Assembly (NCBI GenBank): GCA_964016885.1
Contig: OZ024750.1
Location: 26,722,001 to 26,786,000 of the forward strand
Direction of reading: 5' to 3'
Length of the DNA stretch: 64,000 nt
Origin: Eledone cirrhosa
Lineage: Eukaryota
Shown piece after piece: positions 36,279 through 42,638 of the stretch; position 1 is the first letter of the stretch, and each line of letters starts with the position of its first letter. The notes below the pieces were generated by a model. That model was not told where the DNA came from. It ran no database searches and saw nothing but the letters and a program-made list of their open reading frames with translations. Position numbers and translations under genes: made by a program.

Positions 36279-36413
36279 AATGCCCAATAGGAAAGTTTGG
36301 TGTTAATTGTACAGGGACATGCCATTGTATCAACAAGACAAACTGTTACCATGTAAGTGGAAGATGTTCAGATGGATGTTCTGCAGGTTATACTGGTGAC
36401 AATTGCCAAGAAG
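36279..36413 (+). CDS. Exon encoding a MEGF10/Draper/SCARF-type EGF repeat
   Basis: tttcag|...|gtatat, 135 nt, phase 1-1; xCPIGKFGVNCTGTCHCINKTNCYHVSGRCSDGCSAGYTGDNCQE. Confidence 0.88.
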
Positions 36414-36567
36414 GTATATCATAAACTTATTACGTAATTACTATAATTACTATATACACACACACACAGATATATATATGTGTATGTGTGTGGGGGCAGG
36501 GGGTACGGGTGTGTATGTGCATGAGTTTGTGTGTGTAAATATGATGTTTAATATAGAAATCTTTCAG

Positions 36568-36702
36568 ATTGCTCAGTAGGAAGGTTTGGTGTTACTTGTA
36601 AAGGGACATGCCATTGTAACGACAACACAAACTGTGACATCCTTAATGGAAGATGTTCAGATGGATGTACTGCAAATTATTTTGGTGACAATTGCCAAGA
36701 AC
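36568..36702 (+). CDS. EGF-repeat exon 2
   Basis: tttcag|...|gtatat, 135 nt; DCSVGRFGVTCKGTCHCNDNTNCDILNGRCSDGCTANYFGDNCQE. Confidence 0.86.
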
Positions 36703-37974
36703 GTATATCATAAACTTGTTACGTATTTACTACACACACACACACACACACACACACACACACACACACACACACACACACACACACACACACAGACACA
36801 CACACACACACACACACACACACACACACACACACACACACACACACACACACTCACTTCAATCTAGATTCTCACTTGTAAATTTTTTTATTTTTAATTC
36901 CTGATTATTTATTTTTAATTTTAAGTTTTAACTTCCAACCCTCATTCGTAATTTGCACTGTGAAACCATAATACCTAGAATTAAGTATATTTTCTCTTAT
37001 AGGTTGATGGTCAATTCTAATGTCCATGCTTAATGTAGGGTAGTATTGAGACCTTTTGATACTCACACTCTCCCAACCCCACTAGCTTTCGGCTGACTGC
37101 CACTGACGGGGTCGATAGCAGTAAACTATATATTACAGGCCTGAATAGGTTTCGTTGACGGGGGAACTGCCTAGGCGAATTTCGTTGAGCTCTGAGGTAG
37201 CTGATGGTCAACTTCCTTCGGACCTGCGCCTGCGCAGACAGGTGGGGGTTAATTGGTACTCACAAGGGACGGACGAAGAACCAAAAGAGCACACACTTCG
37301 TCCGTTCCCATGTCGATTCAATTTGGATTGCCTCGGAAACATAACGTTATTATGTAACATGCTGTCTGACGATGTCGCGGCACTGGCGCACGGAATAGTC
37401 TATACACTGTCGCCATTGAAATATGTATCACAGCATTATTATTAAAGGACTTTAACACCTGAAACTGCTTCTCTTTTCATTATTCGATATTTACTCCGTC
37501 AATCCTATGTGGTACGTTGAGTCCTTCAATTGAATTGCATCAATATTTTCCCTTAAGTATGCTATTTTCAAAAATACACAGTGACTTATCGGCCTAATTT
37601 GCATATTAGCAGACTGGATGATCAGTCAGATCTGCATATTAGCCAGATTTGCATATCAGCAGACTGGCCAGTCAGTTTCCTGTATACGAGAGATAAATGG
37701 CCGACTTTGCCAAATTTAAATAAAAGAGACAAATTATATATACAAATATATACACAACAAAGCCTGCAGCTCCATACTCCTTCGCTGTCTCCTCTCCCTC
37801 TCTCTATGTCCCTCTTTCAATCTACTCTCTTACCACCACTATCTCTTTCTCTCTATCTTTCACTCTCTCTTGCGTGTGTGGGTGTGTGGTGGGTGTAGGT
37901 GTGTGCGTGCATGTGTGTGTGTGTGTGTGTCTGTAAATATGATGTTTAATATAGAAATCTTATATATATTTCAG

Positions 37975-38341: not shown

Positions 38342-41300
38342 TTGGAAATAATGAACGATGGAAAGCCTTCCACTTCGACCGTGCGGGTGCTGCTGACGCC
38401 GGAAGTACAGCAAACAGATATGGATTTACCACCTGCAAGAACCCTCGACACAACATCCTGCTGGACCCTTTTGAGAAAGATCTATTTAACCTCGTCAGGA
38501 GCATTAAATTCAATAAGCATTATAGACACAAGAATAATTTCCTCACAAAATTAGCAACAACTATAAAAAAATTTTAAAATAGCCACCTCTTACATGTTAT
38601 GTCTGACAAAACTAAAAATTTATACACCATAACTTCTGAAACTACAACTCTTTCCTTCTTAAGGAACTTAATAAAAACTATAAAAAAAACTTGAGCTCAT
38701 AGTGATGTCAAAGTTGTCTGTTCTGTCTTTTCTAGTCCAGAGTGCTTCGTTGAATTCAATGATGGTCTGCCTAGCCATAAGTATGATGTCAATCTCATTA
38801 TTGGTTATATCAGAGTTGGTGCTGGCGAGGGTTAATGCTTTGTTGAGCAGTTAAGGGGTAGTTGAAGCGTAATAGCTGTTAATTTCAAATTGGATGAACC
38901 TCATATATTCCTTGGACCTTAGATCGGAGAACCATATAATGACTTGGCCGGTGTTGGACCACAGCTTGTAGGTGATATCATCTCGTAGCCCAGGGATGAT
39001 CCTATCAAGGATGTTCTTACTGATACGATCCAAGTCGGATGTGGTTGGGCTTATAAGTCTAATAGATGGGTTCTCTATAAAGTTTGGCTTGTGATCCTTG
39101 AGAGAAAACCTTGGGGTTGTAGGTACATAAGGGTGGGTAAATCTATCCAGATGCAAGCCCTTAACCAAAGCCTGGGCTTTTCGGTTAAGTAAGTTTACAC
39201 TGGAAGGTATAGTTTTTTTAATAGTTTTTATTAAGTTCCTTAAGAAGGAAAGAGTTGTAGTTTCAGGGGTTATGGTGTATAGATTTTTAGTTTTGTCAGA
39301 CATAACATGTAAGAGGTGGCTATCTTTAAATTTTTTTATAGTTGTTGCTAATTTTGTGAGGAAATTATTCTTGTGTCTATAATTTATTGTGTCTTATTGA
39401 ATTTAATGCTCCTGACGAGGCTAAATAGATCTTTCTCAAAAGGGCCCAGCAGGATGTTGTGTGGAGGGTTCTTGCAGGTGGTAAATCCATATCTGTTTGC
39501 TGTACTTCTGGCGTCAGCAGCACCCGCACGGTCGAAGTGGAAGGCTTTCCATCGTATTCTTCGGATGAAAGAGTTGACACTCTGTATTAGGAGTTTGAGG
39601 TATGTCTTCCTGTCCGGGATAGGTATGGACTTAAGTGACTTTGACATCACGATGGGCTCAAGTGACTCTGCGCAAATCACCGATTTAGTTGGAATATACC
39701 TATTACATAACATCAGAGTCGAAATCCAACCATTGCAAGGCGGAATATATAGGGACGACGCCCTATTTGCAGTCCACAATTGCACTAATCGAGGCATTGA
39801 CTTGCTCAAAAATCAATTACACAGATTGTTTAAAAATAACGGTCTCTCTATCACCATCGAGCCGAACCATAAAGTAGTAAACTTCCTAGACGTTACCCTG
39901 GATCTTAACAATAACCTATATTACCCTTACCATAAACCAGGTGAAATACTTACATATATTAGCCCACACTCTAACCACCCACCGGCAGTCATCAGAGCAC
40001 TAATCAAATCTATCTCATATAGGATCTCCATGCTATCAGCAAATGAGGAGATATTTATAAACCACGCAGCATATTATACTAAGGCTCTTTCTGAATCTGG
40101 TTATGAACAGTCCATTTACTACATACCTAAATGCCATAACACAGTCATTCACCACAACCATAATAAACTTAACACTAGAACTAGAAAGACCTTAGCATAT
40201 AGCCAGATTCGCCGGAATTTTAGCAGTAACAGCACTTATACAGGGAACCTTAATAGTGGCAGTGGCCTGCTTCCCATTTCAAGTAGCAAATTAAAAATCA
40301 ACCCTAGAATAGGAATGAGCAATGGGATGACAAATAACAAACGCCCAGGTAATAATAACCCTATGAACCCCCCTACCAACTCCACTAGTACCCCTAGAAG
40401 GAAATGGCCTAGAAATATCACCTGGCTTAACCCCCATTCTCATCTAATCTAGCCACTAATATCCCTAAACGGTTCTTCTCTATCCTATCTAAACATTTCC
40501 CCTCCAACCATAGATATTACAAACTCTTTAATAAAAATAACATTAAAATCTCATTCTAAACAACACCTAACCTAGCTAGCCACATCGCATTTAGTAACCA
40601 TCATAAACTAAGACAGTATAACTCCCACACCGCGGTACCCCCCCCCCCCATCAAATACACCACGCCACTACACCAATACTTACTCTAGTAGCACACCCAC
40701 ATCTAATCCTTCTAGCACTGACCAACCGCTTAGGTTAAACAACCCTACTCTCACTAACGGCAGAAGTAACTGCAACTGCCGTTACCCTAATGCATGCCCA
40801 CTAAATGGACATTGCCTGACACCCAACATAGTCTATAGGTGCATGGTTAAAACTGCTTCGCAGACCAGCTCTTATATCGGGTCTACCTATAACCTTTTTA
40901 AAATACGCTATAATGCGCACTCTTTTTCCTTCCGAGACCCTAACAACAGATGTTCGACATCTCTATCTAGGCTCATTAAAAACCTTAAATTAACCAACAT
41001 TGAACACTCACTAACATGGGATATCTTGCTTAGGGCCCAACCGTTCAATGGACGAAGAAAATCTTGTGAACTCTGTCTTACCGAAGCATATTACATAACT
41101 CTATCACGACCACTACTGATTAACGATAGAACGGAGGTAACTATTAGCTGTCAACATCGAAGGGCTAATTCCTTCGCCAACAGAATATTTGACCCAACAT
41201 AGTCATCTAGCCCCATTTTTACTTGTAGCTAATAAGTTAAATAGCTATAAATAACTTAGATAATTATAAGTTACCTCCCTTACATTGTCTCTCAATTAAA

Positions 41301-41820
41301 AAATAAAAAAGTTAGCACTTAACTATAAACTACCCACAATTTCTAATTTCTCGAGGAGTTACTTCCCCTGAAACCACCCTCTAATTAGTAAGGTAAATAT
41401 GTCCATTGGCGGCCATCTTGTTACCCATAGGAAGATCTCACACAATGCAGCCTATGGGTAACAAAATGGAAGAATACTGCTCCACTATGGCAGACAAGTA
41501 ATATAACCAGGACACCATAGTGAAATACCAACATATGGAACATTACATTTATGTAACATTCTTTCCTTATTTTAATTTATATTCCTTTTGAAGTTCCGAT
41601 GAGCTGCTCTATTTTTACCTATGTTAATTATTTTCAACTGAACCAGATCAATAATGATATATAATCATTTGATCCAGAAATATTATATGGAAAAGCGAAA
41701 CAATTGTAAACGGACATTATTATTATTATTCTCTACGCTCCTTACATCAAACTAAAATATGTTGACAATCTTTTAATAATGTCTTCCTTGTGAAATCTGT
41801 GATCTTGTTTTACTTACTAA
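38342..41820 (+). mobile_element. Penelope-like element (RT + C-terminal GIY-YIG, Nematis-like by recalled motifs) with inverted 5' third
   Basis: Minus piece 38691-39622: PIPDRKTY..LI..RIRWKAFHF, SDKT.NLY, LKDHKPNF...RLISP. Plus piece 39637-41202: FDITMGS, YRDD, VNFLDVTLDL, SNHPP, CNCR..CPLNGHCL, YIGST, CELCL.E. Confidence 0.9.
41593..41711 (+). ncRNA. Degenerate hammerhead in the PLE 3' repeat
   Basis: GTT-CCGATGA-GCT...AGC-GAAA-CAATT-GTA^AAC; U4 is replaced by C and stem II is long. Confidence 0.55.
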
Positions 41821-42506
41821 TGAATATATATATATATATATATATATATATATATATATATATATATATATATATATATATAGAGAGAGAGAGAGAGAGA
41901 GAGAGAGAGAGAGAACAAGAATGAAGTGTTTGTTCATTCTACTGACATGGCTATATAATTGAGGCCTGTTTGCATAATTGCAAACGAATCGAATGTTATT
42001 AATATTCGAAAACCTTAGATTACATTTATATGCATATATATATATATATATATATATATATATATATATATATAAATTTATAGCCATGTGAGTAGAATGA
42101 ACACTTCATTCTTGCTCCTCTGTTGGCATGTGAACAGAACTGCAGACCCTAATGTTTCTGGGTACCACCCTTCATTAGTACAGCCGACTATTCTCTTGCA
42201 AAACCGTCAGAGCCAGTGAAAAGATATGCTATTTTCAAAAATACACAGTGACTCATAGGCCTCATTTGCATATTAGCAGACTGGCTGATATATACCAATA
42301 TATACACAACAAAGCCAGCAGTTCCATACCTCTTCGCTGTCTCCTCTCCCTCTCTCTATGTCCCTCTTTCAATCTACTCTCTTACAATTACTATCTATTT
42401 CTCTCTATCTTTCACTCTCTCTTGTGTGTGTTGGTGCAGGTGTGTGCGTGCATGTGTGTTGTATGTAAATATGATGTTTAATATAGAAATCTCATATATA
42501 TTTCAG

Positions 42507-42638
42507 AATGCCGAATAGGAAAGTTTGGTGTTAATTGTATAAATACATGCTATTGCATCAACAACACAAACTGTGACATCCTTAAGGGAACATGTTCAGA
42601 TGGATGTTCTGCAGGTCATACTGGTGACAATTGCCAAG
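42507..42638 (+). CDS. EGF-repeat exon 4
   Basis: tttcag|...|gtatat, 132 nt, phase 1-1; ECRIGKFGVNCINTCYCINNTNCDILKGTCSDGCSAGHTGDNCQ. Confidence 0.86.

Follow-up and report, generated by a model that had tools for sequence, protein, structure and literature searches.

Among receptors built from MEGF/SCARF-type EGF repeats, SCARF1 and the MEGF10/Draper/CED-1/PEAR1 proteins are low-copy and conserved in vertebrates and flies; the hallmarks of MEGF10/Draper/CED-1 are an N-terminal EMI domain together with cytoplasmic NPxY and YxxL/ITAM motifs. The nearest described gene clusters come from the snail Biomphalaria, where clusters of the architecture considered below map to schistosome resistance (PMC13712769, PMC12297450; here and throughout, as far as the available parts of these reports go). 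Subgroup 1A of the LG5R region comprises clustered genes that encode a signal peptide, MEGF/SCARF-type EGF, one transmembrane helix and a small cytosolic part; its relatives include subgroup 1B, with a fucolectin, and subgroup 1C, with a protein tyrosine phosphatase (PTP), and copy number is unstable (PMC13712769). In the SudRes1 cluster of MEGF/galactose-binding receptor PTP (RPTP) genes of Biomphalaria sudanica the highlighted genes keep both lectin and PTP (PMC12297450). Here we analyse a 64,000-nucleotide stretch of the genome of the cephalopod Eledone cirrhosa (the window: assembly GCA_964016885.1, contig OZ024750.1, positions 26,722,001 to 26,786,000 of the forward strand), which holds four EGF exons of a predicted gene, the 14th in a tandem array of 20. 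On balance we think it probable that the array genes are a recently expanded family of type I proteins, likely non-signalling recognition receptors engaged in an arms race with pathogens.

The initial annotation had described four symmetric phase-1 exons with eight cysteines each, duplicated together with their introns and diversifying almost only by amino-acid-changing substitutions. Coordinates, splice sites and cysteines were all reproduced (Table 1), as were the loops after Cys5 (YHVS, DILN, DQRN and DILK), and a recount of codon differences against exon 1 gave the same figures: 15 non-synonymous and no synonymous in exon 2, 12 and none in exon 3, and 11 and one, with one codon lost, in exon 4. 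That the introns were co-duplicated is likewise evident (35937-36460 against 37638-38156 at 92%; 42288-42688 against 37736-38159 at 86%), and comparison with this flanking sequence shows the exons diverging more than the intron: 0.10-0.16 per site for exons 1, 3 and 4, against 0.06-0.10. For the four exons alone the codon model M0 gives an omega (the ratio of non-synonymous to synonymous change, dN/dS) of 3.8 (p = 0.016 against omega 1). The near-absence of synonymous change is a property of these four exons and does not extend to the family, in which distinct one-step variants number 55 synonymous against 221 non-synonymous.

What did not hold up was the idea of a single cassette as the source of diversity: most of the diversity visible in the genome belongs to a family of tandem genes that differ in their number of exons. 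Reading 1.411 Mb of C10:25.84-27.345 Mb – C10 being the contig that carries the window, at C10:26.72-26.79 Mb, in a genome of 3.0 Gb; the reading covers all but two intergenic gaps, one of 64 kb and one of 30 kb – revealed 20 predicted tandem genes over 1.5 Mb, each running from a signal exon through EGF exons to a transmembrane exon, with one unit inverted. Signal and transmembrane exons are intact in all 20, as are 174 of the 209 EGF exons. Intact EGF exons number, gene by gene, 15, 5, 12, 7, 10, 4, 4, 7, 3, 4, 3, 3, 2, 4 (the window gene), 32, 23, 12, 13, 4 and 7, a range of 2-32; the first EGF exon type of the neighbouring genes is missing from the window gene. An exon-derived 16-mer has 191 exact matches in the genome (one for a control), and nearly all of the 100 listed lie in a second cluster, on C2. 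A signal-exon pattern matches 72 times (control 4), with 20 matches in the C10 array, 27 at C2:310.3-315.3 Mb and five at C2:231.9-233.1 Mb, and a transmembrane-donor pattern 35 times (control 0), with 18 in the array, 16 on C2 and one elsewhere; an 11-mer pattern was dropped as too unspecific. A candidate recognition repertoire is thus defined: the 20 genes mapped in full, and some 27 others counted by pattern, two of the 27 signal exons on C2 having been read.

To the judgement of sequence, both the repeats and the membrane helix of these genes carry an excess of amino-acid change. Codon models were fitted to the repeats with our own script, using the 174 intact exons less five of unusual length, the remaining 169 reducing to 146 unique sequences. 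M0 returns an omega of 1.70, above all of eight neutral simulations (six with recombination), which gave 0.59-0.73 and a doubled log-likelihood difference (2dL) of at most 46; the diversifying selection first proposed from four exons is therefore sustained in the larger set. M2a places 28% of sites at omega 3.3 (2dL 198; 181 for M8 against M8a), those scoring above 0.95 being repeat positions 2, 3, 5, 11, 12, 20, 24, 25, 28, 34, 35 and 38, while the conserved class is made up of the eight cysteines, three glycines and one phenylalanine. The loop after Cys5 is as variable as had been noted, but selection is not confined to it: two of the 12 selected sites fall there and the others are spread along the repeat. 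On an earlier set of 126 exons IQ-TREE and our script agreed (M0 omega 1.73 and 1.79), and block-wise trees, with two or four blocks, still gave about 1.7. Recombination can fake signals at individual sites but not the overall excess, because under neutrality 2dL climbs to 46 and M0 stays at or below 0.73. The excess appears also by other routes. The calibrated tree-free ratio is 1.16, against a maximum of 0.99 when neutral evolution was simulated 40 times with the Cys/Gly constraint in place; variants present in at least 10 exons comprise 27 non-synonymous and two synonymous; and first and second positions of non-cysteine codons have undergone 7.9 changes per site, against 4.2 in the intron flanks. 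The signal exon, with an omega of 4.6 on few changes (2dL 3.3) and a probably misaligned intron distance of 0.24, was not used.

The fastest-evolving part of these genes is the transmembrane exon, which is more extreme than the EGF repeats. Over the 20 genes its omega is 4.7 (2dL 52); the proportion of changed sites is 0.37 for non-synonymous (pN) and 0.15 for synonymous (pS) sites, the adjacent intron standing at 0.076, and pN exceeds the intron value in 181 of 190 pairs of genes. Through all this change the last 20 residues of the helix are free of charged residues in every one of the 20 genes. It is unusual for a transmembrane helix to show strong diversifying selection across paralogues, and the finding lends itself to direct testing.

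Besides the four exons of the initial annotation, the window gene has predicted signal, transmembrane and tail exons and a fifth, truncated EGF copy (Table 1). Joined in phase, its coding exons are predicted to give an uninterrupted frame of 265 residues, in which there are five N-glycosylation sequons. Across the array an ATG and a hydrophobic core, as expected of a signal peptide, are present in 20 of 20 genes (judged from the sequence), as is an exon for one transmembrane helix; a small, domain-free cytosolic part follows in the 15 genes in which a homologue of the tail exon was located. These tails, of 14-181 residues, are low-complexity and frame-variable, mostly DSGK/DKGK repeats; NPxY occurs in none of the 15, and YxxL/I in one (a YxxI). 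Between the signal and the first EGF exon no conserved in-phase exon was seen, though no EMI profile search was made. The likeness to MEGF10/Draper/SCARF-type receptors that the initial annotation had drawn stands for the repeat – which matches SCARF1 (PDB 8hna, E 7e-5), PEAR1 and MEGF proteins, MEGF11 among them – and for the type I topology; on its sequence the array family appears to be neither a MEGF10/Draper member nor an RPTP. Single EGF exons score under the Pfam cut-off, and a protein search with one exon as query gave no candidate, whereas alignment searches did; an AlphaFold model of a single repeat was unreliable (pLDDT 51). One giant C10 gene with its ends outside the array is ruled out by the signal and transmembrane exons in every unit. 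The array genes consist of small exons buried in microsatellites, and annotation is likely to fragment them.

Table 1. Features of the window (positions counted from its first nucleotide)
Feature	Position	Strand	Basis
Predicted first coding exon: ATG and 21-residue hydrophobic signal peptide, phase-1 donor	18463-18526	+	scan for conserved signal-like exons, translation
EGF exon 1, 8-Cys MEGF/SCARF-type repeat	36279-36413	+	135 nt, ag/gt, phase 1-1
EGF exon 2, 8 Cys	36568-36702	+	135 nt, ag/gt, phase 1-1
EGF exon 3, 8 Cys	37975-38109	+	135 nt, ag/gt, phase 1-1
Insertion between exons 3 and 4, two open reading frames, inverted partial copy (38355-38691 against 39555-39211, 94%)	38355-41202		self-comparison
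EGF exon 4, 8 Cys, shorter by one codon	42507-42638	+	132 nt, ag/gt, phase 1-1
Fifth EGF copy, 5'-truncated pseudo-exon without acceptor or GT donor	~42784-42895	+	self-comparison, sequence reading
Predicted transmembrane exon, phase 1 to 2, uncharged helix	47205-47292	+	conserved across units
Predicted terminal coding exon, encoding a basic cytoplasmic tail (36 residues) and the stop	50810-50920	+	conserved across units

In most C10 genes the last EGF copy is decaying and lacks a donor (mostly GG instead), as at window 42784-42895. That this copy serves as the terminal exon of a secreted protein is disfavoured: an intact transmembrane exon follows in all genes, and the copy often has stops or lost cysteines. 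Read-through at this point would hit a stop, and a secreted form could result.

Skipping of exons without frameshift had been proposed as well. All intact exons keep the frame, which allows skipping and equally allows full inclusion, and isoform models of relatives drop repeats; the window gene may do so too. The three sequence runs proved to be contigs of one sample, introns included and with no exon-exon joint, which makes them uninformative on expression. In the NCBI models of Octopus sinensis LOC115219456, five of six alternative isoforms lose whole 8-Cys repeats (1, 1, 2, 3 or 4), and in those of a homologous receptor of Magallana gigas all five do (1, 1, 1, 2 or 3); both sets are predicted models, which mis-mapping of reads in repeats could yield. 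Exon skipping probably adds length variants in the array genes. A possible aid to it is the arrangement of dinucleotide tracts: 130 of 174 exons have a (GT)n tract before them and a (CA)n tract after them, each no more than 120 nt away (for example at window 36200-36240 and 36732-36857), and with 200-nt windows the same arrangement is seen at 119 of 153 exons, compared with 34 of 927 background positions. Intron-bridging in the same orientation has been described in fish (PMC4691745, in the part available). Because the copies are non-independent, having been co-duplicated, and 79 of 174 exons have GT tracts downstream as well, we treat such bridging as a lead only.

Where did these genes come from? 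The nearest named proteins are lectin-EGF-PTP receptors of Octopus, at 57-68% identity per repeat. Receptors of this kind from O. sinensis and O. vulgaris (F5/8-type lectin, EGF, transmembrane, PTP) map to C2:257-262 Mb of the Eledone genome. Homologous signal exons (77-78%) precede lectin or PTP-like exons at C2:232 Mb. A further member, at C2:315.3-315.6 Mb, combines signal, EGF and transmembrane exons with a lectin exon, and no PTP match turned up in the 40 kb read around and downstream of its transmembrane exon. The C10 array itself gave no PTP match, no lectin match in 1.411 Mb with the nearest paralogue exons and none in 864 kb with 151 proteins and nine Octopus proteins; in several units the next gene begins 9-18 kb past the tail or transmembrane exon. 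Taken at the level of sequence, the array genes are likely derived from molluscan lectin-EGF-PTP receptors. The PTP-like exons at C2:232,690,000-232,733,000 have Q-C-R-S in place of H-C-S in the active-site region and possibly encode a pseudophosphatase.

Several related loci deserve mention. At C2:313,089,090-314,007,805 a 200-kb sample holds 59 EGF exon copies (35 of them judged intact by eye), organised into a higher-order repeat about 23 kb long; neither the signal and transmembrane pattern matches nor the sample place a signal or transmembrane exon inside. This is probably a single 0.9-Mb gene, and it could have over 100 exons. Five identical exon pairs spaced at about 2.57 kb (C10:27,238,679-27,251,503) either expanded very recently or are an artefact of the assembly. 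At C20:3.5-5.3 Mb, C27:13.1-15.4 Mb, C16 and C23, lectin and EGF exons give many near-identical matches, another recent expansion of related genes.

Other repeats are interspersed with the array. The insertion between exons 3 and 4 gave no family in Pfam; from reverse transcriptase and GIY-YIG motifs only, we tentatively take it to be Penelope-like. The first intron of the window gene contains a non-LTR retroelement with endonuclease and reverse transcriptase open reading frames (window 21400-26750; Pfam PF03372, PF00078), and window 33730-34707 is a two-copy tandem repeat (unit 485 bp, 99%). Between two array genes lies a satellite of 32 kb whose unit measures about 42 bp (C10:26,797,500-26,829,943); that it encodes a mucin stalk was rejected, since each of the six frames contains stops in the 399 nt read.

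How cephalopods, without adaptive immunity, recognise pathogens is poorly known, and it is an immune role for the array genes that we propose, by analogy. Unequal crossing-over and conversion among the symmetric phase-1 exons would alter the number of repeats and reassort variants against a fixed Cys/Gly scaffold. The family may have arisen from lectin-EGF-transmembrane-PTP receptors by stepwise loss of lectin and phosphatase exons and subsequent expansion. Because both sets of exons would have been lost, the products would bind ligands and signal only via partners, or act as decoys or tethers beside PTP-bearing paralogues. Pathogens would be the likeliest selective agent.

A number of points weigh against this account. 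The signal, transmembrane and tail exons were recognised by comparing duplicated units, so that the gene model is one of comparative sequence only, and in 9 of 15 genes a possible internal donor, 38 nt past the start of the tail exon, may mean further exons in some of them. Confidence is lower in any single selected site than in the overall excess. Uncalibrated tree-free tests are not significant (ratio 1.18 for distinct variants, p = 0.33; 0.93 for singletons), and low dS may contribute to the high omega, because four-fold sites have undergone 2.5 changes per site against 4.2 in the intron flanks. Binding of an outside ligand does not explain selection on a membrane helix. Finally, the causal genes in the Biomphalaria LG5R region are not pinned down (PMC13712769).

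A bolder form of the recognition-receptor account, which we offer as a speculation and would not expect to survive in full, sees some 50 cephalopod genes as a paired-receptor system, in which signalling lectin-EGF-PTP receptors are accompanied by a large phosphatase-less arm of decoys or co-receptors. Diversity would then come from selected repeats, from combinatorial skipping of up to 32 (perhaps more than 100) symmetric exons via (CA)n/(GT)n bridges, and from selected helices that set the choice of partner or evade an antagonist acting at the level of the membrane.

Rather unlikely is a code of cell identity or adhesion, neuronal or allorecognition, with homophilic paralogues or isoforms whose divergent helices prevent cross-pairing in the membrane. 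A tandem array with a conserved signal exon and a diversified ectodomain and helix would suit such a code, and cephalopods have expanded their protocadherins; yet there is no shared constant cytoplasmic exon, the tails being of 14-181 residues, low-complexity and frame-variable, and the fast turnover of exon number with its many broken exons would sit better with an arms race. Recognition between gametes or within the reproductive tract we regard as improbable. Repeat-built fertilisation receptors such as abalone VERL evolve fast, and repeat architecture and positive selection fit a family of this kind equally well, but the closest clusters on record with this architecture are tied, in the available accounts, to parasite resistance, and species-specific binding would not seem to need dozens of divergent paralogues.

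To neutral birth-and-death, with relaxed constraint, conversion and low dS producing an apparent omega above 1, we assign an equally low standing. The singleton ratio, the slowness of four-fold sites relative to introns, the inflation of M2a by recombination and the 35 broken copies among 209 exons all count in its favour; against this, the observed M0 of 1.70 compares with at most 0.73 in neutral simulations, non-synonymous sites outrun introns as well as synonymous sites, and the transmembrane exon, at about five times the intron divergence, has kept its frame and its lack of charge in all 20 genes. We regard as very improbable a Dscam-like locus that selects one cassette exon by mutually exclusive splicing: symmetric, near-identical exons and the probable single C2 gene, with 59 exon copies in its 200-kb sample and no signal or transmembrane exon, recall such an arrangement, but each group in the array has its own signal and transmembrane exon, neither steric nor frame-based exclusion applies to frame-keeping exons whose shortest intron is 140 nt, no docking-selector pairing beyond short AT-rich words was found among the matches listed, and relatives' models hold many repeats in series.

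Set beside known systems, the recognition receptors that we favour share repeat type and type I topology with SCARF1 and MEGF10/Draper/CED-1/PEAR1; they differ in that no EMI exon was found and in their tails, with no NPxY and YxxI in one of 15. The Octopus receptors XP_036365016.1, LOC115219456 and CAI9733295.1 have the same 8-Cys repeat of 43-45 residues, and their isoform models differ by whole repeats; they match C2:257-262 Mb, however, and carry F5/8-type lectin and PTP domains. Selection within a membrane helix has a precedent in tetherin/BST2, where a pathogen antagonist drives positive selection in the transmembrane domain (PMC2633611, in the part available), although that protein is unrelated and its selection acts across species, whereas that in the array is seen across paralogues. 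With SudRes1 the array shares a history of recent paralogous duplication; the snail cluster shows many non-synonymous differences and loss of EGF domains between haplotypes (PMC12297450). The C10 genes, unlike those of SudRes1 and subgroup 1C, are without lectin and PTP domains. No description of the family in cephalopods was found, PMC9334734 offered nothing relevant in the part available, and supplementary gene-family tables could still mention it; nor did the literature covered, in the parts available, yield exon-level and transmembrane selection, a range of 2-32 repeats or a phosphatase-less expansion. The closest counterpart is LG5R subgroup 1A, whose described features – signal peptide, EGF, transmembrane helix, small tail – the array matches, by description and not by sequence. 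That system belongs to a gastropod, and exon-level dN/dS, helix selection and a 2-32 repeat range go unreported in the parts of the source covered (PMC13712769). The class of cluster is nonetheless one known from snails, and an architecture shared with clusters tied, in those accounts, to schistosome resistance suggests that such clusters arise across molluscs.

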